21,927 nt of DNA from Treponema sp. (GTDB taxonomy: Bacteria > Spirochaetota > Spirochaetia > Treponematales > Treponemataceae): contig JALCCK010000048.1 of NCBI GenBank assembly GCA_022640795.1, forward strand, positions 1 to 21,927. Reading direction: 5' to 3'. This document shows positions 5,788 through 21,927 of the stretch, one piece after another. Both the position numbers and the translations under genes were made by a program. Below the pieces are notes generated by a model. It was not told where the DNA came from and made no database searches. It saw only the letters and a program-made list of their open reading frames with translations. Every line of letters starts with the position of its first letter. Position 1 is the first letter of the stretch.

Positions 5788-6603
5788 ATGAGCTATTTAT
5801 CAAGAGAAAATGTAGATTTGCCCGACGGGGTATGGACGAAAATAGATGCTGCTGTCGTGGAAACTGCACGGCGGCTGCTTACCGGCCGGCGTTTTCTTCC
5901 TGTTTACGGACCACTTGGAATAGGTACTGAAAGTATACCGGTAGATACAGCCGGGGCGCCGGAAGAAATTTCAAAGGATGGCCTCACGGTGACCAAAGGA
6001 AGAGTTTTTAGGGAGATTCCTCTTATTTACAACGACTTTCAGCTTCTGTCACGGGATTTGGAATATTCTGTAAAAACAGGGCAGCCCGCGTCTTTCACTT
6101 CCGTTATGTCTGCTGCCGAACTTTGTGCAATAAATGAAGATAAAATGATCTATTTCGGTAGTACAGCTTTGGGGTACGAAGGATTACTGACAGCGAAGGG
6201 TTCGCAGAAAATTTCAAGAAAAGACTGGAAGACCGGTGAGAATGCTTTTTCAGATGTGGCTTCCGGTATAGAACTTCTGGCTGAAAAAAATTTATACGGT
6301 CCGTATGCACTGATTCTAAGTCCTGATCTTGCTGTGGAATTAGAGCGGCTGCAACCGTCGACCGGACTTTTAGAGATAGACCGTGTGGGTAAACTGGTAA
6401 ACAAACACATATATGTTGCTCCGGTGCTTGGAAAGAAAAAAGCACTGCTGGTTTCCGCTGATGCCGGCAGCATGGATCTTGTTATCGGCCAGGATATGAT
6501 AACGGCCTATCTGGAACAGAAAGATTTGAATCATTATTTCAGAATTCTTGAAACGATTTTGCTTCGGATAAAGCGGAAAGAAGCGATTGTTGTTTTTGAA
6601 TAG
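5788..6603 (+). CDS. Family 1 encapsulin nanocompartment shell protein (HK97 fold; linocin M18-like)
   Basis: 271 aa. The N-terminus YLSRENVDLPDGVWTKIDAAVVETARRLLTGRRFLPVYGPLGIG aligns closely with the T. maritima encapsulin N-terminus ([42 protein letters not shown]). The C-terminal segments GPYALILSPDL and LVIGQDM...ILETILLRIK also fit. RBS is agagagg. Confidence 0.9.
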   Translation: MSYLSRENVDLPDGVWTKIDAAVVETARRLLTGRRFLPVYGPLGIGTESIPVDTAGAPEEISKDGLTVTKGRVFREIPLIYNDFQLLSRDLEYSVKTGQPASFTSVMSAAELCAINEDKMIYFGSTALGYEGLLTAKGSQKISRKDWKTGENAFSDVASGIELLAEKNLYGPYALILSPDLAVELERLQPSTGLLEIDRVGKLVNKHIYVAPVLGKKKALLVSADAGSMDLVIGQDMITAYLEQKDLNHYFRILETILLRIKRKEAIVVFE

Positions 6604-6667: not shown

Positions 6668-6700
6668 CCAATTGCGAAAGTTAACAGACTTTTGCAATTG
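6668..6700. promoter_or_regulatory. Dyad-symmetric element (gCCAATTGCGAAAG-N8-CTTTTGCAATTGac) upstream of rubrerythrin; candidate operator or RNA hairpin
   Basis: The arms 6668-6680 and 6689-6700 are reverse complements at 12/14 positions, and each arm contains a CAATTG palindrome. The element lies about 55 nt upstream of the rubrerythrin start. Confidence 0.3.
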
Positions 6701-6754
6701 ACTCAGAATATTATTTTACTTAGTTATTATTTTTTTTCCTTGTGGAGGTTAAAA

Positions 6755-7309
6755 ATGGCTGTTAAGAATGCAATGACTGACAGTTTTCTCCATTCTGCTT
6801 ACAGTGGAGAAAGTATGGCCCATATGCGATATCTGATTTGGGGTGATATTGCTGAAAAGGAAGGTTTTCCCAATATAGCCCGCCTGTTTAAAGCTATCGC
6901 TTTTGCCGAAAGCATACATGCCGGTAATCATTTCAGAGAAATCGACGGCGCTACCGCTGATGCGCTGGTCCCTGCGAACGGTGTTTTCGGAGTCGGAAAA
7001 ACGGCAGAGAATCTTCAGGGTGCTATTGACGGAGAACTTTTCGAGGTTCATCAGATGTATCCTGTTTATTTGAATACTGCAGAATTCCAGCATGAAGCAG
7101 GGGCAAAGCGGTCTTTTCATGCTGCTCTTGAAGTTGAAAAGATACATGCGGATCTTTTCGGTCGAGCTCTGGCTGCAGTGAAGGACGGACATGATATGGA
7201 ACTGCAGTCGATTTATATTTGTCCTGTCTGCGGACACACAGTACTGGATGTCCCTCCTGAAAAATGTCCGATTTGCGGAACTGAACGCGAAAAATATATA
7301 AAATTCTGA
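6755..7309 (+). CDS. rbr: Rubrerythrin (ferritin-like diiron domain plus C-terminal rubredoxin-like CxxC...CxxC domain)
   Basis: The protein contains ...YSGESMAHMRYLIWGDIAEKEGF...AESIHAGNHF...GELFEVHQMYP...ALEVEKIHADLF... and the C-terminal CPVCGH...CPICG motif. The start was chosen at the MAVKNAMTD Met at 6755 because a GGAGG RBS lies 6 nt upstream. The track ORF's extra 21 hydrophobic codons from 6692 have no RBS. Confidence 0.9.
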   Translation: MAVKNAMTDSFLHSAYSGESMAHMRYLIWGDIAEKEGFPNIARLFKAIAFAESIHAGNHFREIDGATADALVPANGVFGVGKTAENLQGAIDGELFEVHQMYPVYLNTAEFQHEAGAKRSFHAALEVEKIHADLFGRALAAVKDGHDMELQSIYICPVCGHTVLDVPPEKCPICGTEREKYIKF

Positions 7310-7613: not shown

Positions 7614-8546
<933 letters not shown>

Positions 8547-8578
8547 CAGACGGAGACTGCCGATATAAGGAGATACAA

Positions 8579-8962
8579 ATGCTGATTATGATTAAGGCAA
8601 TTATACGCCCCGAAAAAACAGATGCGGTTATGGCCAAACTGATGGCCGACGGATTTCCGGCTGTAACGAAAATGAATGTGGCCGGCCGTGGAAAGCAGCG
8701 TGGAATAAAGATCGGTGAAGTAACGTACGACGAAGTTCCGAAGACGATGCTCATGTTTGTTATTCATGAAGACGACAGGGATATCGTTCTGAACGATATT
8801 ATGGATACGGCGCGTACAAACGGAAAAGGTGCTTTTGGAGACGGAAAGATATTTATTTCGCCGGTTGATGAAATGTATACGGTAAGTTCCGGAGTAAAAG
8901 AGACCGGAGACGAGAAGCCGGTCGGGCCTGCCGCCGAGCTGCCCGCCGGAAGCGGGGCATAG
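8579..8962 (+). CDS. nifI1: PII-like nitrogenase regulatory protein NifI1
   Basis: 127 aa GlnB/PII fold: MIKAIIRPEK...VAGRGKQRG...GDGKIFISPVDEMYTVSSG. The nifH-proximal position is typical of group III (anaerobe) nif clusters. RBS is aaggag. Confidence 0.9.
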   Translation: MLIMIKAIIRPEKTDAVMAKLMADGFPAVTKMNVAGRGKQRGIKIGEVTYDEVPKTMLMFVIHEDDRDIVLNDIMDTARTNGKGAFGDGKIFISPVDEMYTVSSGVKETGDEKPVGPAAELPAGSGA

Positions 8963-8966
8963 TGTT

Positions 8967-9341
8967 ATGAAAGAGGTTATGGCCATTATCCGTATCGGAA
9001 AAGTGAATCAGACAAAGCGCGCACTTATAGATGCCGGCATAAGTTCCATGAACGCAAAAGAGTGTTTCGGTCGGGGAAAAGGATATATAGAAATCCGGCT
9101 GCTGGGACTTGAACAGCAGGAATATGAAGAGCACATGGATGATCCCGACAGCGGCAGCCATCTTATTCCAAAGCGGTTGATAAGCATTGTCGTCCCCGAT
9201 TCTCTCGTTTCCGTGGTAGTCGGGGCAATAGTGTCCGTAAACAAGACCGGTAAAAGCGGCGACGGGAAGATTTTTGTTATGCCGGTGATGGATTCCTACC
9301 GGATACGTTCCGGCGATCACGGTGATGAAACGCTGGATTAA
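8967..9341 (+). CDS. nifI2: PII-like nitrogenase regulatory protein NifI2
   Basis: 124 aa second PII paralog (MAIIRIGKV...GRGKGY...GDGKIFVMPVMDSYRIRSG) with an extended T-loop insertion characteristic of NifI2. Confidence 0.9.
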   Translation: MKEVMAIIRIGKVNQTKRALIDAGISSMNAKECFGRGKGYIEIRLLGLEQQEYEEHMDDPDSGSHLIPKRLISIVVPDSLVSVVVGAIVSVNKTGKSGDGKIFVMPVMDSYRIRSGDHGDETLD

Positions 9342-9363
9342 TTTTATGAAGGAGTTTGAGTAA

Positions 9364-11004
9364 ATGGATACTGCTGATTATATGACATATGATCCGGAGG
9401 ACTATAAAAAGACTGCGCTCGATTCGTATTCTTCAAAAGTTCTCAAGAAACGGAGCAGACAGATAGTCGTCAATAAAAGGGAACCTGATGATGTTGTCCC
9501 TGAAATACTGGCGAATACCAGAACTATACCCGGTATTCTCACCATGCGCGGCTGCTGTTATGCCGGATGCAAAGGCGTCGTTCTCGGACCGACCCGCGAT
9601 ATTCTTCAGGTGGTACACGGTGCTATCGGCTGCAGTTTTTATGCCTGGGGAACCAGACGCAACAAAACGCGGGCGGAAAAACCTGATGAACAGAATTTTA
9701 TGCCCTATATGTTCAGTACCGATCTGCAGGAAGATGAAATTGTATTCGGCGGTGAAAAAAAACTGAAAGCGGCGGTGGAAGAGGCGGTAAAGATATTTCA
9801 TCCGAAAGCTGTCGCTATATTTTCGACCTGCCCGGTCGGTCTTATCGGCGACGATGTGCACAAGGTCGCACGTGATATTGAAGCCGAATTTCCGGAAGTA
9901 AACTGTTTTGCTTTCAGTTGCGAAGGATACAAGGGAGTTTCCCAGTCTGCCGGACACCATATCGCCAACAATAAACTTTTTACCGACGTTATCGGCCAGG
10001 AAGAAAAACATCGTGAAGGTAAATATCGTTTCAACATACTCGGCGAATACAATATCGGCGGCGACGAATTCGAAATGGAACGGATTGCCGACAAAATGGG
10101 ACTGACCATTCAGTGTTCCATGAGCGGCAACAGTTCGTATGACGCGATGGCAAGCTGCCAGACGGCGGATTTGAATGTCGTTATGTGTCACCGTTCAATT
10201 AACTACGTGGCGGAAATGCTGGAAACAAAATACGGCATACCGTGGTTTAAGGTCGAATTTATCGGTGCGAAAGCGACAGCTACGACCTTCCGGAAGATTG
10301 CGGATTATTTTGATGATGAAGAACTCAAACAGCGGGTCGAATCCGTCATAGCTGAAGAAATGGTCGAAGTGGAAAAGGAACGGGTAAAGGCCTGCGAAGT
10401 CTGCAAAGGTAAAACGGTCGCGCTGTTTGTCGGCGGTTCCCGCGCGCATCATTATCAGAATCTGTTTAAGGAACTTGGTATGAATATCGTTGCAGCCGGA
10501 TATGAATTTGCGCATCGTGATGACTACGAAGGCCGGCGTGTTATTCCGAATATCGTTATCGATGCCGACGGCAGAAATATAGAGCAGCTGACTATTCATC
10601 CCGATGAACAGAAATACCGGCCCCGCAAAACCGAGTCGGAAATGAAGAAACTCCGTGCCGACGGTATCGATTTCGACAACTACCGGGGTATGATGAACGA
10701 TATGCCTTCAAAGACGCTGATAATCGACGATTTGAATCACCATGAACTGGAACTGCTCATTGATAAATATCATCCGGATATTATCGGTGCCGGTATAAAA
10801 GAAAAATATGTTGTACAGAAACACGGAATACCGATGAAACAGCTGCACAGTTATGATTATTCGGGACCGTATGCCGGATTTAAAGGAGCTGTCAATTTTT
10901 ATCGTGAAATTGCACGGCTTTTGCAGCAGACTCCGCCGAAGCTGTCGCAGGCTCCGTGGAAAAAGCATCCGGAACTTATCGGGACATTTAATTATACAGA
11001 ATAG
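9364..11004 (+). CDS. nifD: Nitrogenase MoFe protein alpha chain NifD
   Basis: 546 aa. P-cluster and FeMoco ligand contexts are present: RGCCYAGCKGV, HGAIGCSFYAWG, FSTCPVGLIGDD, VMCHRSINY (Cys275 equivalent) and QLHSYDYSGPY (His442 equivalent). No delta (G) subunit gene follows, which argues for a Mo type. RBS is aaggag. Confidence 0.95.
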   Translation: MDTADYMTYDPEDYKKTALDSYSSKVLKKRSRQIVVNKREPDDVVPEILANTRTIPGILTMRGCCYAGCKGVVLGPTRDILQVVHGAIGCSFYAWGTRRNKTRAEKPDEQNFMPYMFSTDLQEDEIVFGGEKKLKAAVEEAVKIFHPKAVAIFSTCPVGLIGDDVHKVARDIEAEFPEVNCFAFSCEGYKGVSQSAGHHIANNKLFTDVIGQEEKHREGKYRFNILGEYNIGGDEFEMERIADKMGLTIQCSMSGNSSYDAMASCQTADLNVVMCHRSINYVAEMLETKYGIPWFKVEFIGAKATATTFRKIADYFDDEELKQRVESVIAEEMVEVEKERVKACEVCKGKTVALFVGGSRAHHYQNLFKELGMNIVAAGYEFAHRDDYEGRRVIPNIVIDADGRNIEQLTIHPDEQKYRPRKTESEMKKLRADGIDFDNYRGMMNDMPSKTLIIDDLNHHELELLIDKYHPDIIGAGIKEKYVVQKHGIPMKQLHSYDYSGPYAGFKGAVNFYREIARLLQQTPPKLSQAPWKKHPELIGTFNYTE

Positions 11005-11030
11005 CAGATGCAAAATCAGAGGAGTAAAAA

Positions 11031-12407
11031 ATGCTGTTAAAACACACACCGCAGGAGATTGTCGAACGTAAAGCTCTTACGATAAATGCGGCTAAAACCT
11101 GCCAGCCGGTCGGAGCCATGTATGCTGCGCTGGGCGTACATAATTGTATGAGTCATAGTCACGGTTCTCAGGGATGCTGTGCTTACCACCGCAGTTCTCT
11201 TACCAGACATTACAATGATCCTATCATGGCAACAACCAGCTCGTTTTCGGAAGGGGCATCGGTATTCGGCGGGGCGTCAAATCTCAATGAAGCGATTCGA
11301 AATATATTCACCCTGTATGATCCCGATATTATCGCCGTCCATACGACCTGTCTGTCGGAAGTTATCGGTGACGATCTTGTCCAGATTATAAAAAACGCAT
11401 ACAAAGACGGCCGCATCCCGCAGGGAAAAATAGTACTGCATACCAATACACCTTCGTTCAAAGGCAGTCATGTTACCGGTTTTTCAAATATGACGACAAG
11501 TTTTATTTCCTACCTGACAAAGTCGACGGGAAAAAAGAATGATACGGTCAATATTATACCGTCGTTTATTGAGCCGAGCGATATGAGCGAGATTAAATAT
11601 ATTATGTCGGAGTTGGGTATTAAATATATTATGCTGCCGGATACTTCCGACGTCGTGAACGGTCCGATGGACGGAAAATTCCGTATGTATCCGAAAGGCG
11701 GAACGACGAAAGAACAGATAGCGGCTATGGGGGACAGCAAGCTTTCCGTCGGTCTCGGTGTTATCGGCGCATCCGACGCCCCGAAATTACTGAATTCAAA
11801 GTTCAAAATTCCGATGGAGATAGTTGATCTACCGATCGGACTTTCTGCAACGGATGCGTTCGTAAACCGGATGCACGTTCTGTGCGGTGCTCCCGTTCCG
11901 GAATCCATCGATCTTGAACGGGGACAACTGCTTGATGCCATGATGGATAAAAACCAGTATCTGAGCGGAAAAAAAGTTTCTATCGTCGGTGATCCCGACA
12001 TCGTGCTCGGTATGTGTCAGTTTTGCAAAGAAAACGATATGAATGTTATTCATGTTATCAGCGGTACGCCGACTCCGAAACACTGGGAAGACCGGCTTGC
12101 GGAAATCTGCGGACCCGGCACGTACATAAAAACGGGAGAAGGTGCCGATATGTTTCTGTTACACCAGCTGATAAAAAACGATAAACCGGATCTCCTGTTC
12201 GGAAATACGTATGCCAAAGAGATAGCACGGGACGAAGATATTCCGCTGATCCGGATCGGGTATCCTATTTACGATCGGTTCGGACAGCAGTATATGCCGG
12301 TTATGGGATATCGGGGCGGTATGCGGTTATTCTGCAGAGTGCTCGATGCAATCCTCGACCGGCAGGACAGGGACTGCAATGATGAGGAATTTGAATTCAT
12401 AATGTAA
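11031..12407 (+). CDS. nifK: Nitrogenase MoFe protein beta chain NifK
   Basis: 458 aa. Contains AKTCQPVGAMYAALGVHNCMSHSHGSQGCCAYHRS and TTCLSEVIGDD, which are NifK P-cluster ligand motifs. RBS is gaggag. Confidence 0.95.
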   Translation: MLLKHTPQEIVERKALTINAAKTCQPVGAMYAALGVHNCMSHSHGSQGCCAYHRSSLTRHYNDPIMATTSSFSEGASVFGGASNLNEAIRNIFTLYDPDIIAVHTTCLSEVIGDDLVQIIKNAYKDGRIPQGKIVLHTNTPSFKGSHVTGFSNMTTSFISYLTKSTGKKNDTVNIIPSFIEPSDMSEIKYIMSELGIKYIMLPDTSDVVNGPMDGKFRMYPKGGTTKEQIAAMGDSKLSVGLGVIGASDAPKLLNSKFKIPMEIVDLPIGLSATDAFVNRMHVLCGAPVPESIDLERGQLLDAMMDKNQYLSGKKVSIVGDPDIVLGMCQFCKENDMNVIHVISGTPTPKHWEDRLAEICGPGTYIKTGEGADMFLLHQLIKNDKPDLLFGNTYAKEIARDEDIPLIRIGYPIYDRFGQQYMPVMGYRGGMRLFCRVLDAILDRQDRDCNDEEFEFIM

Positions 12408-12417
12408 ATAAAACGGG

Positions 12418-12459
12418 AGCCGGTACTGCCGCTCTGATTGCGGGCGGCCGGCGTTTTTA
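12418..12459 (+). terminator. Putative GC-rich hairpin plus U-tract (partial terminator/attenuator) between nifK and nifE
   Basis: gccggtactgccgctctgattgcgggcggccggc can form nested GC stems (gccgg/ccggc outer, ccgc/gcgg inner) and is followed by gttttta. It sits in the 70-nt nifK-nifE gap. Confidence 0.3.
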
Positions 12460-12477
12460 TAAAAAACAGAGGTTGTC

Positions 12478-13884
12478 ATGTTTGAAGTTTTGGAAGCCAG
12501 AAAAAAACAGGTATTTGTCAACGGCAGGGATTCGTTTGAAGTTTCCTGCGATAAGGCAAGTACTGCAGGTTCCGTAAGTCAGCGTGCCTGCGTATTCTGC
12601 GGTTCACGGGTAGTACTGTATCCTATTGCGGACGCGCTGCACCTTATTCACGGACCCATCGGATGTGCCGCTTACACCTGGGACTTACGCGGTTCCATGT
12701 CGAGCGGCCGGGAACTGCACCGCATGTGTTTTTCTACGGATCTCCGTGAGAACGATGTTATCTACGGCGGAGAAAAAAAACTGTATGCCGCGCTTACGGA
12801 ACTTATCGACAACTATAAACCGGCGGCGGCGTTCGTCTACGGAACCTGTATCGTCGGTCTTATCGGTGATGATATGGATGCCGTCTGCCGCCGCGTTTCA
12901 AAAGAGAAAGAGATTCCGGTGCTGCCGGTTCATTCGGAAGGATTTAAAGGAACGAAAAAGGACGGGTATCGTGCAGCCTGCGAGGCGCTGTTCACACTGA
13001 CCGGAACAGATAACGAAACACCCGTATCAAAAAACAGTATCAATATCCTCGGAGATTTTAATCTTGCCGGAGAGACATGGCTGATCGGGGATTATTATAA
13101 ACGGATGGGCGTTCAGGTCGTCGCAGCGATTACCGGCGATGGCCGTATCGAACAGATACGGCGGTGTCATCGTGCGTCGCTGAACGTCGTTCAGTGCAGC
13201 GGTTCCACGCTCACGCTTGCCAAAATGATGGAAGAAAAATACGGTATTCCGTATATCCGCGTATCGTATTTCGGAGTGGAGGACATGTCCCAGGCACTGT
13301 ACGATGTGGCGGACCGGCTCGGAGATCCCGGACTGATGAAGCGGGCGAAGGAAATCGTACATCACGACGTTTCAGCATTGCTCAAGGACCTTGCACCGTA
13401 TAAAAAAGCACTGCAGGGAAAAAAAGCTGCCGCTTATGTCGGCGGATCATTTAAAGCGTTTTCACTGGTAAAGGCGCTCCGCCATCTCGGTATGGAAATG
13501 GTCGTCGTTGGGTCTCAGACCGGAACAAAAGAAGACTATGAATATCTGAAAGAAATTACCGCTCCGGGAACTGTTATCCTCGACGATACGAATCCGCTTG
13601 AACTGTCTAAATTTATTCTTGAAAAAGGTGCAGAACTGCTTATCGGCGGCGTAAAAGAACGGCCGATTGCCTATAAGATGGGCATCGGGTTCTGTGATCA
13701 TAATCATGAACGCAAAGAACCGCTTGCCTGCTACGAAGGCATGCTTAATTTTGCAAAGGAAGTTTACAGTTCCGTTATGAGTCCGGTATGGAAATATTCT
13801 CCTGCCCGCATTCGTGCCGGAAAACTGAAGGATAGTGCGGAATTATTCGAAGACGCTCCGGTACCGTCTGCGGACCGGAAATAA
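12478..13884 (+). CDS. nifE: Nitrogenase FeMo-cofactor biosynthesis scaffold NifE
   Basis: 468 aa NifD paralog. Contains ACVFCGSRVVLYPIADALHLIHGPIGCAAYTWD and GTCIVGLIGDD, and lacks the NifD-specific P-cluster pair. Confidence 0.9.
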   Translation: MFEVLEARKKQVFVNGRDSFEVSCDKASTAGSVSQRACVFCGSRVVLYPIADALHLIHGPIGCAAYTWDLRGSMSSGRELHRMCFSTDLRENDVIYGGEKKLYAALTELIDNYKPAAAFVYGTCIVGLIGDDMDAVCRRVSKEKEIPVLPVHSEGFKGTKKDGYRAACEALFTLTGTDNETPVSKNSINILGDFNLAGETWLIGDYYKRMGVQVVAAITGDGRIEQIRRCHRASLNVVQCSGSTLTLAKMMEEKYGIPYIRVSYFGVEDMSQALYDVADRLGDPGLMKRAKEIVHHDVSALLKDLAPYKKALQGKKAAAYVGGSFKAFSLVKALRHLGMEMVVVGSQTGTKEDYEYLKEITAPGTVILDDTNPLELSKFILEKGAELLIGGVKERPIAYKMGIGFCDHNHERKEPLACYEGMLNFAKEVYSSVMSPVWKYSPARIRAGKLKDSAELFEDAPVPSADRK

Positions 13885-13899
13885 AGTGGGAGAGTCAGT

Positions 13900-15297
13900 A
13901 TGGACTATAACGGAAGAAAAACAGCGGCGGTTCCGGTTAAAAATTTTGTTTCGACCCGGAATGCCTGTAAACTTTGTGCCCCGCTCGGAGCCAGTATTGC
14001 CTATCGCGGAATCGAAGGCTGTATTCCGCTGATACACGGATCACAGGGGTGTTCGACATATATCCGCCGGTATACGATCAGCCATTTTCGTGAACCGATC
14101 GACATCGCTTCGTCGAATTTTACCGAGTCGACCGCCATTTTCGGCGGCCGCGAAAATCTCTCGACGGCACTGAATAATATTACCCGGCAGTATAAACCTG
14201 AAGCGATCGGCATTACCTCAACGTGTCTGTCCGAGACAATCGGTGAAAATGTTCCGCTGTATCTCGGTGAATATATCTGTGAACGTGAAAAAGAACGGGC
14301 AAAGAATCCGGATATACGGGCCCCTGCTATTTTCTATGCATCGACGCCGTCGTATAAAGGAACTCACATTACCGGATTTCATGCGGCGCTCTATGCGGCC
14401 GTTACAGGGCTGGTCCGTCCGGAACTGCTTTCCGATCCGGAACGTTCCGACCGTATAAATATTATTTCCGGATTCGTTTCCGCGGAAGATCTGCGGGAAG
14501 TTCATGAAATACTGCGGGATTACGATGTTCCGTATACGCTGCTTCCCGATTATTCAAAGACGCTCGACGGTGATTCATGGGAAGTCTATGAAAAACTGCC
14601 GTCCGGCGGTACAAAGATTTCCGCCATACAGGCGATGGGGAAGGCCTGCGGTTCGGTCTATCTCGGAAAAGCCGTTGCGCGGGACAACAATGCCGGACTC
14701 TGGCTGCAGGAGAACTGCGGTGTTCTGCTTCATCAGGTGCTGCTTCCCGTCGGCATTGAGAATACCGACGCATTTTTTGCAGCGCTGAATGCGGTGACCG
14801 GCAGGGAAACTCCGGAAAGATGGCGGTATACGCGGGGGCGCCTCGTCGACGCGTATATCGACGGACACAAATACTGCTACGGTAAACGTGCGATCGTATA
14901 CGGCGATGAAGATTTCGTACTTTCCGTCTGCAGTTTTCTCGGAGAGATCGGCATCATTCCCGTACTTGCGGCGACCGGTGCGAAAGCGCTGGTGGAAGAA
15001 TCGGGTACGGATCAGGAGCTGACGGTTTTGAGCGAAGATACGGATTTTACGACGATGCTTGAAACGGCAAAGGATCTGAGTCCTGATATCGTTATCGGAA
15101 ACAGCAAAGGATTTTATTTATCGCGTAATCTCGGAATTCCGCTTGTGCGGTGCAGTTTCCCGATTCATGACCGGATCGGCGGGCAGCGCATACTCACACT
15201 TGGATACCGCGGTACCCTGAATCTGTTCGACCGGGTATGCAACGCACTCATGCAGGTAAAACAGGAAAAAGCAGGAAAAGGATGGAGCTATGTATAG
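13900..15297 (+). CDS. nifN: Nitrogenase FeMo-cofactor biosynthesis scaffold NifN
   Basis: 465 aa NifK paralog (ACKLCAPLGASIAYRGIEGCIPLIHGSQGCSTY). Its stop overlaps the nifB start by 8 nt. Confidence 0.85.
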   Translation: MDYNGRKTAAVPVKNFVSTRNACKLCAPLGASIAYRGIEGCIPLIHGSQGCSTYIRRYTISHFREPIDIASSNFTESTAIFGGRENLSTALNNITRQYKPEAIGITSTCLSETIGENVPLYLGEYICEREKERAKNPDIRAPAIFYASTPSYKGTHITGFHAALYAAVTGLVRPELLSDPERSDRINIISGFVSAEDLREVHEILRDYDVPYTLLPDYSKTLDGDSWEVYEKLPSGGTKISAIQAMGKACGSVYLGKAVARDNNAGLWLQENCGVLLHQVLLPVGIENTDAFFAALNAVTGRETPERWRYTRGRLVDAYIDGHKYCYGKRAIVYGDEDFVLSVCSFLGEIGIIPVLAATGAKALVEESGTDQELTVLSEDTDFTTMLETAKDLSPDIVIGNSKGFYLSRNLGIPLVRCSFPIHDRIGGQRILTLGYRGTLNLFDRVCNALMQVKQEKAGKGWSYV

Positions 15298-16573
15298 TAC
15301 AGCAAAAGACAGTAAATTCGGAAATCATCCGTGTTTTAATGCAGCCGTCAGACATTCGACGGGCCGTATCCACCTGCCGGTGGCACCGGAATGCAATATT
15401 CAGTGCAATTTCTGTAACAGAAAGTACGACTGTGTCAATGAATCACGACCGGGCGTTACGAGTTCGATGCTGACGCCGGATCAGGCCGTATCGTACCTCG
15501 ATAAGGTGCTTGAAATAGTTCCCGCCATCAGTGTCGTCGGTATTGCCGGGCCGGGAGATCCGTTCGCGACACCGGAGGAAACGCTCGCAACGCTTGAAGC
15601 GGTCGGGAAAAAATATCCCGGAAAACTGCTCTGCCTTGCGTCGAACGGACTGAATGTTGCTCCGTATGTCGACCGTATAGCGAAACTCAACGTGTCGCAC
15701 ATGACTATTACGGTTAACGCGGTCGATCCCGGAATCGGAGCGCAGATATACGGGTGGATCAGATCCGGCCCTCACGTGAGCCGCGGTGCAGAGGGAGCCC
15801 GCGTTCTGCTTGAAAAGCAGACGGAAACGATCCGCGCCCTGCATGAAGCCGGTATTCTGGTCAAAATAAACACCGTCGTTATCCCCGGAATAAACGATCA
15901 TCACGTTGCGGCGATCGCCGGATACTGTAAAAAGCTCGGTGCCGATATTCAGAATTGTATTCCGATGATGCATGTTGAAGGTTCAGCTTTTGAAAACCGG
16001 GAGGGTCCCGAAGAAAAACAGATGCTCGAAATCAGGAAACAGAGCAGCCGGTATCTTGACCAGATGTGCCATTGCGCGCGCTGCAGGGCGGACGCGGTCG
16101 GACAAATCGGAGAAGAGAATAACGAGAAAATTGTAGAACTGCTTGCCACTGCATCACGTATCGGGCCGACAAAACAGCGTCCGTACGTTGCGGTTGCCAG
16201 TATGGAAGGTCTGCTGGTCAATCAGCATCTGGGAGAAGCGACGGAACTCTGGGTTTTCAAGCCGGGTGAAGATGATGATTCGGAACTTGTTTCCGCACGT
16301 GCAACTCCCGTTCCAGGCGGCGGTGACGACCGGTGGGAACAGCTGGCGGATGCATTCGGCGACTGCTTTGCGATTATCTGTGCCGGTTGCGGTAAAGCTC
16401 CGCTGCGGGTACTTGCGCAGCACAATCTGCCGGTCATCGTTATGGAAGGACTTATTGAGGAAGGAACAAAAGCGCTGTTTCGCGGTCAGTCCGTTCCGAA
16501 ATTATATATGCGGCCGGCGGGCGTCTGCAGTCTCGGAAAAAGCTGCGGCGGCAGCGGAACCGGCTGCGACTGA
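15290..16573 (+). CDS. nifB: FeMo-cofactor biosynthesis radical-SAM protein NifB with C-terminal NifX/NafY-like domain
   Basis: HPCFNAAVRHSTGRIHLPVAPECNIQCNFCNRKYDCVNESRPGVTS is the NifB radical-SAM CxxxCxxC signature. The C-terminal approximately 120 aa (VAVASMEGLLVNQHLGEATELWVF...) resembles the dinitrogenase FeMo-cofactor-binding (NifX-like) domain. Confidence 0.95.
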   Translation: MYSTAKDSKFGNHPCFNAAVRHSTGRIHLPVAPECNIQCNFCNRKYDCVNESRPGVTSSMLTPDQAVSYLDKVLEIVPAISVVGIAGPGDPFATPEETLATLEAVGKKYPGKLLCLASNGLNVAPYVDRIAKLNVSHMTITVNAVDPGIGAQIYGWIRSGPHVSRGAEGARVLLEKQTETIRALHEAGILVKINTVVIPGINDHHVAAIAGYCKKLGADIQNCIPMMHVEGSAFENREGPEEKQMLEIRKQSSRYLDQMCHCARCRADAVGQIGEENNEKIVELLATASRIGPTKQRPYVAVASMEGLLVNQHLGEATELWVFKPGEDDDSELVSARATPVPGGGDDRWEQLADAFGDCFAIICAGCGKAPLRVLAQHNLPVIVMEGLIEEGTKALFRGQSVPKLYMRPAGVCSLGKSCGGSGTGCD

Positions 16574-16617
16574 ACTTTGAAATGAGCCGCTTTGCTGCGC
16601 GGCTGGGGAGAAAACTG

Positions 16618-16923
16618 ATGAAAAAACCGGCACATCACGTGTTTGTCTGCGGATCTTTCCGTGTTAACGGAGCGCCGCAGGGTACCTGTAATAAACTGGG
16701 ATCCATGAATCTCATGCAGTATTTTGAAGAAGAAATAGGAGACCGCGGTATTGATGCGGCCGTGTCGGGCACCAGCTGTCTCAAACTGTGCGACCGCGGA
16801 CCTGCCGTTATCGTATATCCGGAAAACTGGTGGTACGGACATATCGACAGCGAAGATGCCGTCGATGCTGTCCTCGATTCAATAGAAAAAGGCGTTCCCG
16901 ATCCGGATCATCTGCTTGCATAA
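16618..16923 (+). CDS. Thioredoxin-like [2Fe-2S] ferredoxin (homolog of the C. pasteurianum 2Fe-2S Fd / Azotobacter FeS-I family)
   Basis: MKKPAHHVFVCGSFRVNGAPQGTCNK...SGTSCLKLCDRGPAVIVYPENWWYGHI closely parallels the Cp 2Fe-2S Fd (HHIFVC...GFC...[22 protein letters not shown]), with the same four Cys spacing (C11, C24, C56, C60). The start was taken at 16618, which has a GGGGAGAAAA RBS; the track ORF begins at 16582. Confidence 0.85.
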   Translation: MKKPAHHVFVCGSFRVNGAPQGTCNKLGSMNLMQYFEEEIGDRGIDAAVSGTSCLKLCDRGPAVIVYPENWWYGHIDSEDAVDAVLDSIEKGVPDPDHLLA

Positions 16924-16949: not shown

Positions 16950-18014
16950 CTAGTTTTTAAGAAAAAAAAGTTCCGCTGCAGGAAGGCAGAGCCGCTGCGG
17001 TTTTCCGTTTTTATTTTCGGGATGCTGCAGAACGTTCCCGCTGTCGACGGAAATTTCACGGTCCAGCGGAACAGTACCGTTTTCAGAGAAGAGATATTCC
17101 GATACACTGAACGGAGAATTCCGGTATTCCGCCGCTTTGAACGTGAAGCAGTTTTCTGTTTCGTCCGGTAATGGTGGTCTGATATAATGCGCACGGATTC
17201 CGATATATTCGGTATCGGCGGGTATCGGCCGGTGAACGGAAAGTGATAGTCCCCAGTCCTTTACGAATATCGTATGATCGTCCGTTTTTTCAAATGATGC
17301 GATATTTTTACAGCCGGTCAGTTTTGCTGCCGTTATGTTTTGCGGATTTGCAAAGATTTCCGAACTGGAACCGGCTCTGCAGATTTTTCCTTTTGAGAGA
17401 ATCTGCAGGTTCTTACAAATTCTGTATACTTCATCCCTGTTGTGAGAAACGAACAGCAGTGTTCCCTTAAAGTCGGCAAGCAGATCCATGGTACTCTGTT
17501 CGACCTGCTGCTTAAGAAAGGCATCAAGTGCTGAAAATGGTTCATCCAGCATGACAATATCCGGTTGCAGGACCATCATGCGGGCGAGTGCTGCCCGCTG
17601 CTGCTGTCCTCCGCTCAGTTCCGCGGGTTTTCTGTCGGCAAGCGCCGCAATACCGAAATGTTCAAGTATTTCGGCAGTTCTTTTTTTTCGTTCGGCTTTT
17701 TGAAATTTATGCAGTACAATACTGATATTTTGAGCAATTGTCATTGTCGGGAAAAGTGCATAATTCTGAAAAAGAAATCCGCAGTGCCGGTTCCTCGGTT
17801 TTGTATTGATGCGCCGCTCGGAATCGAATACGGTACGACCGTTTATGATGATGTATCCGCTGTCGGGCGTTTCAATTCCCGCAATACACTTGAGTGTCAT
17901 GCTTTTTCCGCAGCCGGACGCACCGAGCAGTCCGACCGGTATATTGTCTGCTGTGAATGAAACATCGAGCGTGAATTCTGCGAGCTGTTTTTTTATGGAT
18001 AGTTCTATACTCAT
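16950..18014 (-). CDS. modC: Molybdate ABC transporter ATP-binding protein ModC (with C-terminal TOBE/Mop domain)
   Basis: Walker A GASGCGKSMTLKCIAGIE, the LSGGQQQRAALAR signature, Walker B MLDEPFSALD, and an approximately 120-aa C-terminal extension typical of ModC. The ATGA overlap with the modB stop indicates coupling. Confidence 0.85.
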   Translation of the reverse strand: MSIELSIKKQLAEFTLDVSFTADNIPVGLLGASGCGKSMTLKCIAGIETPDSGYIIINGRTVFDSERRINTKPRNRHCGFLFQNYALFPTMTIAQNISIVLHKFQKAERKKRTAEILEHFGIAALADRKPAELSGGQQQRAALARMMVLQPDIVMLDEPFSALDAFLKQQVEQSTMDLLADFKGTLLFVSHNRDEVYRICKNLQILSKGKICRAGSSSEIFANPQNITAAKLTGCKNIASFEKTDDHTIFVKDWGLSLSVHRPIPADTEYIGIRAHYIRPPLPDETENCFTFKAAEYRNSPFSVSEYLFSENGTVPLDREISVDSGNVLQHPENKNGKPQRLCLPAAELFFLKN

Positions 18015-18682
18015 ATTCCTGTTTTTTTCCGCTGTTTACCGCTGCCCGCAAAGTTCATCCCGATAATGGTACAGAATGATATTCCGACGATTATAATGAC
18101 CCAGAGCAGCGCTCTTCCCATATTGTCACTGTACGCTGCTGTCCAGATTGCGATCGGAATTGTTTCCGTTCTGCCTGGTATATCACCGGCCAGCATAAGC
18201 GTTGCGCCGAATTCTCCGAGTGCACGGGCGAAGGCCAGAATTGTTCCTGCTATAATACCCGGTAAAGAAACCGGAATCATTATTTTTGCAAAAATAAGTC
18301 CCTCTTTGAGGCCCAGCGTTCTGGCTGCGTTGAGAATGGATGTATCGATCTGCTCGAAGGCGGCTCTGACGGTACGGTACATCAGCGGAAATGCTACGAC
18401 GGATGCGGCTACGACGGTTCCCTTCCAGTCGAAAATTATTTTTATACCGACGCTGTTCAGCAGCCGCCCGACGGGGCTGCGGGTTCCGAATATGCAGAGC
18501 AGAAAAAATCCGAGTACAGTCGGCGGCAGAACAAGCGGCAGTGTGCAGAGTGCATCGAGCAATGCCCGTGATCTTCCTTTCAGTTTTACAACGCCCCAGG
18601 CGACAAGCGTTCCGGTAACAACCGCAAAAACGGTTGCCAGAAATGAGGCCTTCAGAGAAATGAAAAGTGGGGACCAGTCCAT
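18011..18682 (-). CDS. modB: Molybdate ABC transporter permease ModB
   Basis: 223 aa, 5-6 TM. The EAA-like loop ...LGLKEGLIFAKIMIPVSLPGIIAG is typical of ModB/CysT-type permeases. Its start overlaps the modA stop (TAATG). Confidence 0.85.
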   Translation of the reverse strand: MDWSPLFISLKASFLATVFAVVTGTLVAWGVVKLKGRSRALLDALCTLPLVLPPTVLGFFLLCIFGTRSPVGRLLNSVGIKIIFDWKGTVVAASVVAFPLMYRTVRAAFEQIDTSILNAARTLGLKEGLIFAKIMIPVSLPGIIAGTILAFARALGEFGATLMLAGDIPGRTETIPIAIWTAAYSDNMGRALLWVIIIVGISFCTIIGMNFAGSGKQRKKTGI

Positions 18683-19479
18683 TATTTTACGCTTATAAAT
18701 CCGTACTTGGTGAAAATATCCAGTGCATCTGAGCTTTCAAGGAATGCAAGAAAATCTTTTGCAGCCTGTTCATGCTCCGTCGTCTTTACGATGGCAGCAG
18801 GGTATACGATAGGACGGTGCGATCCGTCGGGTGCAGTGGCAACTACCGTAACGCTGTCGGAAATCGCGGCATCGGTAGAATAGACAGCTCCCGCCTGCAC
18901 ATTGCCCTGTTCAACATACGAAAGGACCTGTCTGACGTCTTTTCCGAATACCAGTTTTCCCCCGGATTCTATATTGCCATAGATTCCGAGACTGGTGAAC
19001 ACTTCTTTTGCATAGGAACCGGCCGGAACGCTTGACGGTTCGCCGATCGCCGCCTGGGTGACTTTGTCGCTGTCGACATCGTTAAAAGACGCTATTCCCG
19101 CTGTACTTCCTTTCGGCACGATCAGTACCACTTCGTTTTTCAGGAGATCCGTTTTTGTATCGTTCATGATGAGATCCTCATCCATGAGTGCGGTCATATG
19201 TTTTTCGGAGGCAGAAAAGAACAGATCGGCAGGAGCGCCCTGTTCGATTTGTTTACGCAGTGCACCTGACGATGCGTAGGTCGGCGTTACCTTTACTGCA
19301 GGATGATTCGTTCCGTACAGCGTAATGCATTCGTTCATAGCATTGGTAAGACTCGCCGCCGCCGCGATAATGATTTCCTGTTTCGGTTCGGTTTGTTTGT
19401 TTGCATCTTTACTGCCGCCGGCAAAAAGACCTGCCGCGAATCCGATACTAATTGCTATTGCCGTAATTTTTTTTAACAT
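18682..19479 (-). CDS. modA: Molybdate ABC transporter periplasmic substrate-binding protein ModA
   Basis: N-terminal signal peptide MLKKITAIAISIGFAAGLFAGGS, followed by ...IIIAAAASLTNAM...YASSGAL..QIEQGAPADLFFSA, typical of ModA. The start is at the MLKK Met (19479) with a GGAGG RBS; the track start at 19506 lacks an RBS. Confidence 0.85.
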   Translation of the reverse strand: MLKKITAIAISIGFAAGLFAGGSKDANKQTEPKQEIIIAAAASLTNAMNECITLYGTNHPAVKVTPTYASSGALRKQIEQGAPADLFFSASEKHMTALMDEDLIMNDTKTDLLKNEVVLIVPKGSTAGIASFNDVDSDKVTQAAIGEPSSVPAGSYAKEVFTSLGIYGNIESGGKLVFGKDVRQVLSYVEQGNVQAGAVYSTDAAISDSVTVVATAPDGSHRPIVYPAAIVKTTEHEQAAKDFLAFLESSDALDIFTKYGFISVK

Positions 19480-19505
19480 AGAATACCTCCTGTGGTTTCT
19501 ATACA

Positions 19506-19534
19506 AGGTTACACTACTGAATATCAGAGGTCAA
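19506..19534 (-). promoter_or_regulatory. Candidate sigma-70-type promoter for modABC (minus strand: TTGACC-17nt-TAACCT)
   Basis: Reading the minus strand: TTGACC (plus 19529-19534), a 17-nt spacer, then TAACCT (plus 19506-19511), about 30 nt upstream of the modA ATG. The resulting 5' UTR is short. Confidence 0.3.
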
Positions 19535-19598
19535 CTACATTTTTGTAGGATTCGATAAATATTTTTTTTGTATTTTTATTCATGAATAAAATAAAGTC

Positions 19599-19647
19599 GT
19601 GCATAAATATAAAATATGTTGACAGGGTGAACGTTTATGCACATACT
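19599..19647 (+). promoter_or_regulatory. Candidate promoter (TTGACA 19619-19624, CATACT 19642-19647) bracketed by a 9-bp inverted repeat GTGCATAAA / TTTATGCAC
   Basis: A perfect 9-bp inverted repeat at 19599-19607 and 19634-19642 flanks a consensus -35 hexamer. It lies in the divergent modA / ORF137-nifV intergenic region. Confidence 0.3.
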
Positions 19648-19664
19648 TTTTAGCGAGGTATGCC

Positions 19665-20078
19665 ATGAATAACGATATAACAGAACAGGCAATTGAAGAC
19701 TGGGATAAAATGTACGAGGCGGGCAAACAGTATCGGGCTACCGCACATAAAGCCGTAGACCGTCCTGCCGTTTTTACTCCGTCGATTATCCGTAATGTTG
19801 CAGCTATGGGAATAGAATCCTATTTCATGGCTTTTTTTATGTATCAGGGAATCCTGCCGCGCAATCATACGATGCAGGATTTACTTGCTGATGCAAAAAA
19901 ACTGTTTTCAGTTGACCCTGAACTGGAGCATATACTGCTTAAAATAGACGACCAGATGCAGCTCTGTTCTCTTGAGAATTTTAAATTGACTGATGCGGTT
20001 TCTGAAGACATCCCGGAATTCCTCAAGGCTGTCGACATGGTTGCCGCCATTGCCGGCAGTGAGATTGGTAATGCCTGA
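19665..20078 (+). CDS. Hypothetical protein, 137 aa, predicted all-alpha, no recognised domain; translationally coupled to nifV
   Basis: ORF with a GAGGT RBS 5 nt upstream. Its stop TGA (20076-20078) overlaps the nifV ATG (20071) by 8 nt. No motif was recognised with confidence; a weak HEPN-like impression is not supported by an Rx4-6H motif. Confidence 0.5.
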   Translation: MNNDITEQAIEDWDKMYEAGKQYRATAHKAVDRPAVFTPSIIRNVAAMGIESYFMAFFMYQGILPRNHTMQDLLADAKKLFSVDPELEHILLKIDDQMQLCSLENFKLTDAVSEDIPEFLKAVDMVAAIAGSEIGNA

Positions 20079-21660
20079 CAGGGGGCTGCGGCGGATCCGC
20101 GTATTTGACACAACTTTGCGGGACGGCGATCAAACGGCAGGCTTTGCTTTTTCTTCGGCATCCCAGAAGGAATCGCTTGCTGATCTGATCGATTCCTATG
20201 GTGTCGACTGTATTGAGGCCGGTTTTCCGTGTGCGTCTCCGATGGAATTTGAGAGTTGTTCCCGTATTGCCGCTAACCACCTGCATGCCGAAATCGCCGT
20301 TATGACACGCTGCAGGGAAGCCGACATAGATAAAACCGTAGCCGTTTTTCGTGGAATGAAGGAACCGAAAAGTGTGCTGCATCTTTCGCTTCCGGTAAGT
20401 TCCGTCCAGATGGAATATAAACTGGAACTGGAACCGGCTGCGATGCAGGCGCTCATGATAAAATGCATACGCCGTGCAACGGGCTACGTTCAAACTGTTG
20501 AAATGGGGTTCGAAGATGCGTCCAGAGCCGATCCTGAATTTCTCTCTGAATGCTGCCGGCTGGCGATCCAGAGCGGTGCACGCATTATAAATATAGCCGA
20601 TACCACCGGCAGTTTACTGCCGGATCAGACGGCGGCGCTGGTCCGTTTTCTTTCTGATGCAGCCCCTGAATTTTCATCGGGTGCCGCGGTCCTGAGCGTA
20701 CACTGTCATAACGATATGGGGCTTGCGCTCGCGTCCGCACTTGCTGCAGTAGAAGCCGGTGCCGGTCAGCTCGAAGTTACCGCAGCGGGCATCGGCGAAC
20801 GGTGCGGTAATGTTCCGCTGGAGCAGCTTGCCTATGTTCTGGACGAATATAGCGGACGGTTCGGAATACGGACAAATCTTCGCCCGGAGCGAACAGCGGC
20901 TGTCTGCAGGACGCTGTTTACGTTTCTGGGTACCGGACTGTCTCCTTTTCGGCCGGTAACAGGCTGGAACACGGATTCTCATGCGTCCGGAATGCATCAG
21001 CAGGGAATTCGTGCAAATGCGGATACGTATATTGTTCATACTGCTGAAAAATACGGTATGGTACACCGCCGGTTCATTCTGAGCAGGCATTCGGGGACCT
21101 CCGGACTGCGTACTGTTGCGGAACAATTGTTTTCAGCCTGTCCCGGGTTGCAGCGTTTTCTGACTTCCCGGACGGCAGCCGCCGCCCTGCTAGAATCAGT
21201 AAAATCGGCCGGCGCGGACTGCAGTGCGGTCGGTATTACGGAATTGTGTAAAATACTGTACGCGCAGCAGTTACTTGTAAAGCCGCCCTATGGCTGCAGC
21301 GGTCTGTCGGTAGAGAACAGCTTTGCCGGTCGGACACGAACTGCTGTCGTGCATATCGAAATTACGGACGGGACAGAAAACTGCCGGATCTTTGACCGCT
21401 CGGGAACGTCTGCCGAAGAATGCTGCAGGCAGATTGCCGTCAGTATTCTCGATAAACCGCTTGACGTCAAAACCGTCAGCTGGTCAGGTTACAGGGCAGC
21501 GGAAATCAGTTCGTCAGAAAAAGTATGCGTGTACATGGAAATACAGACATCCGCACATGCATATGCCGTTTCACGGAACGGAACTTTCAGGGAATTAGTT
21601 TATTTCGAATGTCTGCTGGATGTTGTTAATGCCGAACTCTCTTCAGCTGCTTCTTCCTGA
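20071..21660 (+). CDS. nifV: Homocitrate synthase NifV (LeuA/IPMS/HCS family) with long C-terminal LeuA-like domain
   Basis: IRVFDTTLRDGDQTAGF matches the DRE-TIM metallolyase N-terminal motif, and HCHNDMGLALASALAAVEAGAGQLEVTAAGIGERCGN matches the HxH...GIGERAGN motif. Context is a nif cluster. 529 aa from the internal Met at 20071; the track ORF start at 19993 overlaps the upstream gene and lacks an RBS. Confidence 0.8.
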   Translation: MPDRGLRRIRVFDTTLRDGDQTAGFAFSSASQKESLADLIDSYGVDCIEAGFPCASPMEFESCSRIAANHLHAEIAVMTRCREADIDKTVAVFRGMKEPKSVLHLSLPVSSVQMEYKLELEPAAMQALMIKCIRRATGYVQTVEMGFEDASRADPEFLSECCRLAIQSGARIINIADTTGSLLPDQTAALVRFLSDAAPEFSSGAAVLSVHCHNDMGLALASALAAVEAGAGQLEVTAAGIGERCGNVPLEQLAYVLDEYSGRFGIRTNLRPERTAAVCRTLFTFLGTGLSPFRPVTGWNTDSHASGMHQQGIRANADTYIVHTAEKYGMVHRRFILSRHSGTSGLRTVAEQLFSACPGLQRFLTSRTAAAALLESVKSAGADCSAVGITELCKILYAQQLLVKPPYGCSGLSVENSFAGRTRTAVVHIEITDGTENCRIFDRSGTSAEECCRQIAVSILDKPLDVKTVSWSGYRAAEISSSEKVCVYMEIQTSAHAYAVSRNGTFRELVYFECLLDVVNAELSSAASS

Positions 21661-21927
21661 CGGTAATTTGAACACGAATAACGCAGGGAACAGGCGGTAC
21701 AGACGGCAAGCGGATCTTCTCCTTCCGTCTGAAGTTCATACCAGATTTTGAGTTCGTGTACTTCCTGAGCCGCATCCTCATCCAGCGCGTTCATTGTCAT
21801 GTTCTGCAGTGCAGTCGTCGCCTCTCTGTTAGTAAATTTGAAACCTTCCTGTTCCGCACGGCACAACAGTTCCTGTCTGCTTTCACACCGATACAGATTT
21901 TTTCGTAGTTCCGGGTCGGTTCTGCAG
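21600..21927 (-). CDS. Partial (5'-truncated at window edge) hypothetical Cys-containing protein, convergent with nifV
   Basis: The open frame continues to the window end (…CRTDPELRKNLYRCESRQELLCRAEQEGFKF…PLAVCTACSLRYSC…). Its 3' end overlaps the nifV 3' end by 61 nt on the opposite strand. No family was recognised. Confidence 0.35.
   Translation of the reverse strand, partial: CRTDPELRKNLYRCESRQELLCRAEQEGFKFTNREATTALQNMTMNALDEDAAQEVHELKIWYELQTEGEDPLAVCTACSLRYSCSNYRQEEAAEESSALTTSSRHSK

Follow-up and report, generated by a model that had tools for sequence, protein, structure and literature searches.

A predicted HEPN-fold protein family without the ribonuclease motif, encoded beside nif genes in a Treponema-like spirochaete and in other anaerobic bacteria

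ORF137 and its place in the nif region

The stretch of DNA analysed in this work (the window; 21,927 nucleotides, contig JALCCK010000048.1 of the Treponema sp. assembly GCA_022640795.1) is the nif region of a Treponema-like spirochaete, and our attention was focused on a short open reading frame (ORF) of 137 amino acids embedded in it, hereinafter ORF137 (19665..20078, plus strand, taken from the ORF list and read directly), which lies between a divergently transcribed modA gene and a gene coding for a NifV-like protein. The data reported below reveal that ORF137 is a genuine gene, that according to its structural model the encoded protein has a HEPN fold, that, in the alignments, the ribonuclease motif of this superfamily is lost, and that the family is linked to nif genes in several phyla and overlaps the NifV-like gene in a conserved manner in the Spirochaetota.

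The start codon at 19665 is preceded, at a distance of 6 nt, by a Shine-Dalgarno sequence GAGG (19655..19658, plus strand, read in the sequence), and the stop codon TGA (20076-20078) overlaps the ATG of the NifV-like gene (20071-20073), so that the two genes share the 8 nt ATGCCTGA (20071..20078, plus strand), a signature of translational coupling. Both the ribosome-binding site and the overlap had been proposed in a first-pass annotation of this region and can be read directly. The same annotation had also assigned a plausible promoter to ORF137; a sigma-70-like candidate does exist in the 158 bp that separate the divergent modA and ORF137 (TTGACA-17-CATACT, 19619..19647, plus strand, matching the consensus at 10 out of 12 positions and representing the best match of the region), but such matches are not significantly enriched over shuffled sequences (6 found vs. 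2.6 +/- 1.9 expected), and the promoter should be regarded as a consensus match only, plausible but unproven. The reading of positions 19507-19664 disclosed no GG-N10-GC sigma-54 element, and the idea that a Moco riboswitch or another RNA element might reside between modA and ORF137 was rejected, since no Rfam family reached its gathering score anywhere in the window.

ORF137 is a real gene, far beyond a chance ORF. Indeed, 12 close homologues, mostly from Treponema metagenome-assembled genomes (MAGs), align with it over the full length (E 3e-76 to 2e-27), and the comparison with the nearest genes gave a proportion of non-synonymous differences (pN) of 0.16-0.25 and of synonymous differences (pS) of 0.73-0.85, synonymous sites being saturated; the low pN against a saturated pS points to a strong purifying selection and to a conservation in frame.

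As far as the surrounding genes are concerned, the nif cluster to which ORF137 belongs (7689..16923, plus strand) has the order nifH-nifI1-nifI2-nifD-nifK-nifE-nifN-nifB and is closed by a gene for a thioredoxin-like 2Fe-2S ferredoxin (16582-16923, plus strand; NF041612-like, 77 bits, below the cut-off); no NifO-like ORF is present in the window. This cluster is followed, on the minus strand and divergently from ORF137, by the genes of a molybdate-type ATP-binding cassette (ABC) transporter recognised by domain search (16950..19506), that is, the ATPase (16950-18014), the permease (18011-18682), and the SBP_bac_11 binding protein ModA (18682-19506). The synteny analysis revealed that the proximity of this transporter to ORF137 is conserved among Spirochaetota and Fibrobacterota. 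On the other side, the NifV-like gene (20071..21660, plus strand) codes for a 529-amino-acid protein of the homocitrate/isopropylmalate-synthase family, with an HMGL-like domain at residues 9-261, an HCS_D2 domain at residues 296-353, and about 170 C-terminal residues without any Pfam match. Its reading frame from the ATG at 20071 begins MPDRGLRRIRVFDTTLRDGDQ; the start codons of the relatives are located 7-12 residues ahead of the DTTLRDGDQ motif and, because of this, the longer start listed at 19993 is unneeded.

Fold and conserved residues of the ORF137 family

An exhaustive profile search of 1.84 billion representative sequences retrieved 252 clusters at E <= 1e-3, of which 148 also passed E <= 1e-10, the protein length being 125-170 amino acids in almost every cluster, and a family profile built on 150 sequences and used as query added only three further distant members. 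The family is unnamed: where a source gives its members a name, this is 'hypothetical protein', and neither Pfam-A (whose newest models date from 2025) nor NCBIfam release 20 covers it above threshold. ORF137 itself gave no significant match in Pfam (E <= 1), NCBIfam (E <= 0.01), or PADLOC, its matches to 56B_RHH and ParE_toxin (E 0.15-0.23) being dismissed as noise. The first-pass annotation had recognised in it neither a nif accessory protein nor a fragment of a split NifV, and both statements were borne out. Small proteins encoded in nif clusters, such as NifW, NifZ, NifT, NifX/NafY, Nif11, DUF269, and DUF683, are presumed to act in the maturation of the cofactor or of the MoFe protein, and ORF137 resembles them in its size and location; however, it matches none of them, nor NifQ or NifO, in Pfam or NCBIfam, and the known nif accessory families are absent from the 25 Pfam families most often matched by the 150 members. 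The Paenibacillus nif 'orf1', considered as a possible relative, was rejected as an unrelated DUF269 protein. Similarly, the hypothesis of a split NifV-omega/alpha was discarded, since the small ORF lacks HMGL, HCS_D2, and LeuA matches, and the HMGL domain encoded downstream is complete from residue 9.

The profile and structure searches that the first-pass annotation had suggested disclosed what that annotation had missed, i.e., a HEPN fold in which the RNase motif is replaced. The AlphaFold2 model of ORF137 consists of five helices (predicted local distance difference test, pLDDT, 84; predicted template-modelling score, pTM, 0.80), the top five matches retrieved by Foldseek are all HEPN proteins, and the modelled helical bundle is superposable on solved HEPN domains. 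At the sequence level, 49 of the 150 family members match PF05168 (HEPN) at E <= 1, weakly and with a best value of 7.4e-7, whereas ORF137 does not match any HEPN model of Pfam even at this threshold; the alignment of the family profile with a fragment of TT1696 by hhalign gave a probability of 88.5% and an E value of 2.7e-6. A search of the PDB with a 13-sequence profile retrieved no match, and the top ones obtained with the 150-sequence profile (the neck repeat of a C-type lectin, a designed helical protein, and DrrA) were rejected as coiled or low-complexity, the alignment with 1ufb alone being used. Taken together, the comparisons suggest that the family is likely homologous to PF05168, yet lies outside the current Pfam model.

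Among known proteins, the nearest to the family are the minimal HEPN proteins of PF05168, such as TT1696 (1ufb), ST0689 (1wol), AF0298 (2hsb), and TM0613 (1o3u), which share with the family the Glu of helix 2, the 'H-[ST]-x-x-D-L' start of helix 3 and, in a third of the members, the weak PF05168 matches just mentioned. They differ from it in the C-terminal region. Catalytic HEPN RNases are defined by an Rx4-6H motif that opens the last helix, and 'TRYPDAH' of TT1696 is its copy in that protein; in both the HMMER and the hhalign alignments this string falls opposite 'CSLENFK' of ORF137, with the Arg facing S102 and the His facing K107. The RYPDAH of TT1696 is thus represented in the family by C-S-x4-K/x, and an R-x4-6-H string in the C-terminal part was found in 20 out of 150 members, which is the level expected by chance. 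Judging from these alignments, the RNase signature is lost and replaced by a Cys-containing loop. Further differences are the niche, that is, the nif clusters, and the lack of an adjacent nucleotidyltransferase gene at ORF137.

The motif shared by the family is F-T-P-x4-N-x3-M-x2-E-K ... L-P-x-N-H-T-x2-D-L ... D-x2-Q-x-I-C-S, and its most conserved residues are E51 (149/150), C101 (146/150), and H68 (145/150). E51 is located in helix 2 and H68 at the start of helix 3, whereas C101 directly precedes the residue aligned with the Arg of the RNase motif; both alignments place E51 on the helix-2 Glu of TT1696 and H68 on the His of its 'GHSILDL' string. The closest functional precedent for a HEPN protein devoid of catalysis is the sacsin HEPN domain (3o10), which is non-catalytic, dimeric, and nucleotide-binding, so that HEPN domains can serve as binding or dimerisation modules. 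However, that domain is part of a eukaryotic multidomain chaperone and, with 8% identity, has no sequence similarity to ORF137.

Linkage to nif genes and to the NifV-like gene

To describe the genomic context of the family, one genome per GTDB species was scanned with a degenerate DNA pattern for N-x3-M-x2-E-x3-M-x11-N-H-T-x2-D, which yielded at least 120 loci; all the counts out of 120 given here are among the matches listed. The context of each locus is a fixed 8-kb block, i.e., an arbitrary slice, in which nif genes were detected by BLAST with the nif proteins of the window, and the nif counts are lower bounds. All the 120 loci are true members of the family according to hmmsearch. Core nif genes (nifH/D/K/E/N/B) are present in the same block in 72 of them and some nif-type gene in 89. 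Most of the loci, as labelled, belong to Desulfobulbales and other Desulfobacterota; the others include Spirochaetota, Bacteroidota (Marinilabiliaceae, Cyclobacteriaceae, Lutibacter), Fibrobacterota, Planctomycetota, Kiritimatiellales/Verrucomicrobiota, Nitrospirota, and one Polyangia MAG. These are anaerobic lineages, and no cyanobacterial, Firmicutes, or archaeal label was found among the 120.

The colocalisation with nifHDKENB across phylogenetically distant genomes, which we adopted as the operational definition of a nif accessory family, is observed, and a nif accessory role, as argued from gene neighbourhood, is well supported. The first-pass annotation, which had put forward such a role, had also indicated that the finding of homologues widespread in non-diazotrophs and unlinked to nifV, or not conserved in frame, would speak against it. 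The homologues turned out instead to be conserved in frame and, for the most part, strongly linked to nif genes; about a quarter of the loci, and the distant member P0101, lack a nif gene within the short context considered.

The gene order differs from one lineage to another. In the relatives of the window within Treponema (L001-L007) the arrangement nifDKENB, ferredoxin gene, modCBA on the opposite strand, ORF137 homologue, and NifV-like gene is maintained. Spirochaetota and Fibrobacterota share the order divergent mod genes, HEPN-like gene, and NifV-like gene, and in Kiritimatiellales and one Spirochaetota MAG nifENB and the ferredoxin gene are followed by nifV and then by the HEPN-like gene. 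Desulfobulbales exhibit the order nifH-I1-I2-D-K, a NifB-like radical-SAM paralogue, a 2Fe-2S ferredoxin, a GNAT acetyltransferase, the HEPN-like protein, a protein of about 100 amino acids, and nifENB; in some Desulfobacterales the HEPN-like gene precedes a NifV-like one, and in Bacteroidota the order is NifX-like, Nif11-like, the protein of about 100 amino acids, and HEPN-like. Overall, a GNAT gene is a neighbour in 61 of the 120 loci, and mod-type ABC genes flank the family gene in Spirochaetota, Fibrobacterota, Verrucomicrobiota, and Marinilabiliaceae. Two of the loci without a nif match (L044 and L071) harbour NifX-like and Nif11-like genes, and in another one (L045) a SulP/STAS transporter gene flanks the family gene.

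This recurrent organization bears on the possibility that ORF137 is an ordinary HEPN toxin or defence module (HEPN-MNT or another RNase) that came to lie in a nif region by chance. Such a reading could appeal to the fold and to the weak ParE_toxin match (E 0.23); however, the Rx4-6H motif is absent family-wide, and a nif synteny that is stable across several phyla is not what is observed for mobile toxin-antitoxin or defence genes. Differently from the HEPN-MNT toxins (SO_3166/5yep, 7ae2, 8xdj), ORF137 has no RX4HXY motif, its neighbours in the window are modA and the NifV-like gene instead of an MNT gene, and PADLOC gave 0 matches for it and for six relatives. Moreover, when the same-strand neighbours lying within 1.5 kb were clustered for the 120 loci, no MNT family emerged, nor did MNT (PF01909) rank with the top Pfam families for 137 neighbours taken from 30 non-nif loci, these scans having covered part of the neighbours. 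A toxin or defence role can thus be considered as essentially excluded.

The first-pass annotation had also proposed ORF137 as a partner of homocitrate synthase. In agreement with this idea, the stop/start overlap is kept in 12 independent Spirochaetota loci, whose NifV-like proteins are 36-71% identical to that of the window. The overlap spans 4 nt in five of them (L016, L055, L091, L124, and the P0016 contig), 8 nt in L005 as in the window, 10 nt in L069, 14 nt in L006, and 23-26 nt in L001, L035, L100, and L112; in Desulfobacterales the two genes are 60-95 nt apart. It is also worth considering locus L134 (7216-9193), where the HEPN-like gene is paired with a gene for a 513-amino-acid HMGL-like protein, adjoins genes for an ArsR-type regulator, a P-type ATPase, and an ABC-3 metal transporter, and has no nif gene within 7 kb upstream. 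Since the pair persists away from nif, the two genes travel together, and this speaks for a genuine pairing within that clade. In the whole set a NifV-like gene shares the block with the family gene in 20 of the 120 loci, belonging to several phyla and arranged in three ways (HEPN-like then NifV, NifV then HEPN-like, or convergent), and it is the nearest labelled neighbour downstream in 12 loci, upstream in 2, and on the opposite strand in 2.

Nevertheless, the partnership cannot be extended to the entire family. The 20 blocks represent a minority, and in the Desulfobulbales arrangement, the largest group, no NifV-like gene was seen beside the family gene, which follows the GNAT and ferredoxin genes instead; because of this, NifV is not a universal partner. 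In addition, the NifV-like protein encoded in the window reaches neither the LeuA nor the NifV cut-off of NCBIfam (310 vs. 532 bits and 234 vs. 463 bits, respectively), and for this reason its assignment as a homocitrate synthase rests on the context. Hence, the proposal was partly supported: gene order suggests that a NifV-specific partnership holds for the spirochaete clade and is not a family-wide rule. The NifV-like partners of the HEPN-like gene in spirochaetes and Fibrobacter are all of the long type (about 500-540 amino acids).

Possible roles of the family

A further connection concerns NifO. In two family members, P0116 (L008-L010) and P0135, for which the only contigs available are below 1.5 kb in length, an N-terminal TIGR01616 domain is fused to the C-terminal HEPN-like domain (P0116 scoring 126 bits against a cut-off of 109, P0135 80 bits over part of the model), and separate NifO-like genes adjoin the family gene in L050 and L119. 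The NifO/DraB proteins (TIGR01616, 'nitrogenase-associated protein', ArsC/Spx fold) thus share with the ORF137 family the condition of nif-cluster accessory, even though they have a thioredoxin-like fold vs. the helical HEPN bundle predicted for ORF137, which does not match TIGR01616. They have been described as lacking an established mechanism and as not universal among diazotrophs; NifO has been suggested to partition Mo towards the iron-molybdenum cofactor (FeMo-co), and a DraB homologue appears to regulate DraG in Rhodospirillum rubrum (PMC5249018).

On these grounds, the explanation that we favour, with slightly less than even confidence, is that the ORF137 protein might be a non-RNase HEPN binding or adaptor protein operating at the molybdenum/homocitrate stage of FeMo-co assembly, together with NifV in Treponema. 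According to this model, ORF137 would be a small cytoplasmic HEPN-fold protein, no longer a ribonuclease, and its family would represent a conserved part of the Mo-nitrogenase clusters with nifI1/nifI2 in anaerobes (Spirochaetota, Desulfobacterota, Bacteroidota, Fibrobacterota, Planctomycetota, Verrucomicrobiota/Kiritimatiellia, and some other groups). In the lineage of spirochaetes to which the window belongs, the gene would share one mRNA with that of the NifV-like synthase, the translation of the two being coupled through the stop/start overlap. By analogy with the usual behaviour of HEPN domains, the protein would probably be a dimer, in which a putative Cys/His/Glu site might hold a small ligand, a metal, or a partner protein, and in Treponema it may physically work with NifV. 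The molybdenum/homocitrate stage seems the most plausible one because the associations with NifV, with mod/SulP, and with NifO recur.

A more detailed version, which we consider unlikely to hold as a whole, would depict the protein as a FeMo-co maturation factor of the nifI1I2-type anaerobes, that is, a HEPN dimer with a Cys-centred site that passes Mo, homocitrate, or acetyl-coenzyme A (acetyl-CoA) between Mod/NifO and NifV/NifEN. If this was correct, the family would be a missing part for the expression of compact anaerobic nif clusters in heterologous hosts, and it would include the first HEPN domain with a role in the biosynthesis of a metallocofactor.

Several observations weigh against the idea of an adaptor at the molybdenum/homocitrate stage. 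The first ones concern the genomic context: the 8-kb block lacks any nif-type gene in 31 of the 120 loci, where the neighbours are heterogeneous; a distant member (P0101) lies beside Rce1-like and SpoIID genes and another one (P0012) beside an NYN/CSD gene, both on short contigs without nif genes. In three Planctomycetaceae loci (L083:705-2354, L094:1679-3316, and L106:1458-3143) a gene with the GAF/sigma-54-activator/HTH_8 organization typical of the NifA architecture directly precedes the family gene on the same strand, and these blocks contain no nif structural gene. Other observations concern the putative site, since C101 falls in a loop modelled with low confidence (residues 101-106, pLDDT < 50), and the equivalents of E51 and H68 occur in the ordinary HEPN protein TT1696, so that these two residues may be structural and not functional.

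The loci without nif genes and the contexts of P0101 and P0012 would also be accounted for if the family were a general housekeeping one, whose nif neighbourhood merely reflects the shared ancestry of a few clades in the absence of a nif-specific function. We regard this as improbable: the nif linkage recurs in several phyla with differing gene orders, which is unexpected from inheritance alone, and the domain fusion with a NifO-type protein also argues for a nif-related function. Besides, several of the 'non-nif' loci carry NifA-like, NifX-like, Nif11-like, or molybdate-type genes, and the fixed size of the slices makes the nif counts underestimates.

The position of the NifA-like gene in Planctomycetaceae leads to the main rival, because a regulatory role fits this arrangement equally well. 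According to this alternative, to which we assign a clearly lower probability than to the adaptor, about one chance in a few, the family would be composed of regulatory or sensor proteins, in which the thiol of C101 would act as a redox or metabolite switch on nif expression or nitrogenase activity, e.g., through the binding of a NifA-type, a NifI1/I2, or a NifO/DraB-type protein. NifA-like genes are found within 8 kb in 16 loci, including the close Treponema relatives L005 and L006, and the single near-invariant Cys is located in a flexible loop; moreover, the fused or adjacent NifO/DraB-like proteins, which have the ArsC fold, carry an N-terminal Cys, and a relationship between DraB and DraG has been reported (PMC5249018). 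On the other hand, the adjacency to NifA-like genes is a minority arrangement, and the Pfam scans of ORF137 and of the family revealed no DNA-binding or known sensor domain. The coupling to the biosynthetic NifV in Spirochaetota and the location between nifB-ferredoxin and nifEN genes in Desulfobulbales also appear more similar to those of a maturation gene.

A third and speculative possibility is suggested by the two commonest enzyme neighbours, GNAT (61/120) and NifV-like (20/120), both of which use acetyl-CoA. In this case a Cys-His-Glu site on a nucleotide-binding HEPN scaffold might bind CoA or carry the acetyl group for NifV or GNAT, and it might be significant that no residues of the family are more conserved than E51, H68, and C101. 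The HEPN-type domains of sacsin and of kanamycin nucleotidyltransferase bind nucleotides, and both proteins are structural neighbours of the ORF137 model. However, this idea stems purely from the neighbours, no likeness to a thiolase, NAT, or HMG-CoA-synthase fold exists, and two of the three residues have their equivalents in TT1696, as stated above; it is therefore of low probability, in our opinion.

Whatever the function, a known fold occurs here with a new active-site loop and in a biological niche that is new for it. The catalogue of accessory genes of nitrogenase was compiled mostly from aerobic or facultative Proteobacteria and from cyanobacteria; to our knowledge, the compact clusters of anaerobes (Treponema, Desulfobulbales including the relatives of cable bacteria, Bacteroidota, and Fibrobacterota) have no recognisable NifQ, NifW, or NifZ. 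An unnamed family occurring in nif clusters of more than 70 species-level genomes represents a testable candidate for a missing step or a regulator, and it offers a clear case of a predicted HEPN fold that has lost the RNase motif and acquired a conserved Cys, in a context related neither to defence nor to RNA. The literature searches retrieved no paper joining HEPN with nifV, and none of the titles and abstracts of the works naming HEPN, nitrogenase, and nif concerns a HEPN protein of a nif cluster. From a practical viewpoint, automatic pipelines would label the family as 'hypothetical' or, wrongly, as a toxin, and the gene would be worth including when anaerobe-type clusters are transplanted in nitrogenase engineering.

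Some additional observations were made on the genes accompanying the family. The NifB-like paralogue of Desulfobulbales (e.g., L095:404-1549, L107, L027, L048, and L061) codes for a protein of about 380 amino acids, sharing 29-33% identity with NifB of the window and matching Radical_SAM only weakly (4e-7); it is located after nifK and before the ferredoxin, GNAT, and HEPN-like genes, and a bona fide nifB (50-60% identity) is present downstream of nifEN. The family of about 100 amino acids, devoid of Pfam matches, adjoins the HEPN-like gene in 45 of the 120 loci (e.g., L048:4908-5210 and L015:6018-6320, the HEPN-like gene being read on the plus strand), downstream in Desulfobulbales and upstream in Bacteroidota; neither the window nor the Treponema loci contain it. 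Another small neighbour family, of about 82 amino acids, occurs in 12 loci.

Lastly, in the window itself, a convergent small Nif11-like ORF (21600..21926, minus strand) is located at the end of the stretch, by which it is probably cut; it belongs to a family that jackhmmer also retrieved in L005-L007, and the neighbours of this type in L005 and L006 weakly match PF07862 (Nif11). The other genes of the window include those for a LysR regulator, a MATE transporter, and CstA, with a 166-amino-acid ORF (2775-3275, plus strand) without Pfam or NCBIfam matches between the last two. Directly upstream of nifH (7689), genes on the plus strand code for an EncFtn-like ferritin (5372-5749), an encapsulin shell protein (Linocin_M18, 5788-6603), and a rubrerythrin (6692-7309), which represent a module of iron storage and oxidative stress at the head of the nif cluster.

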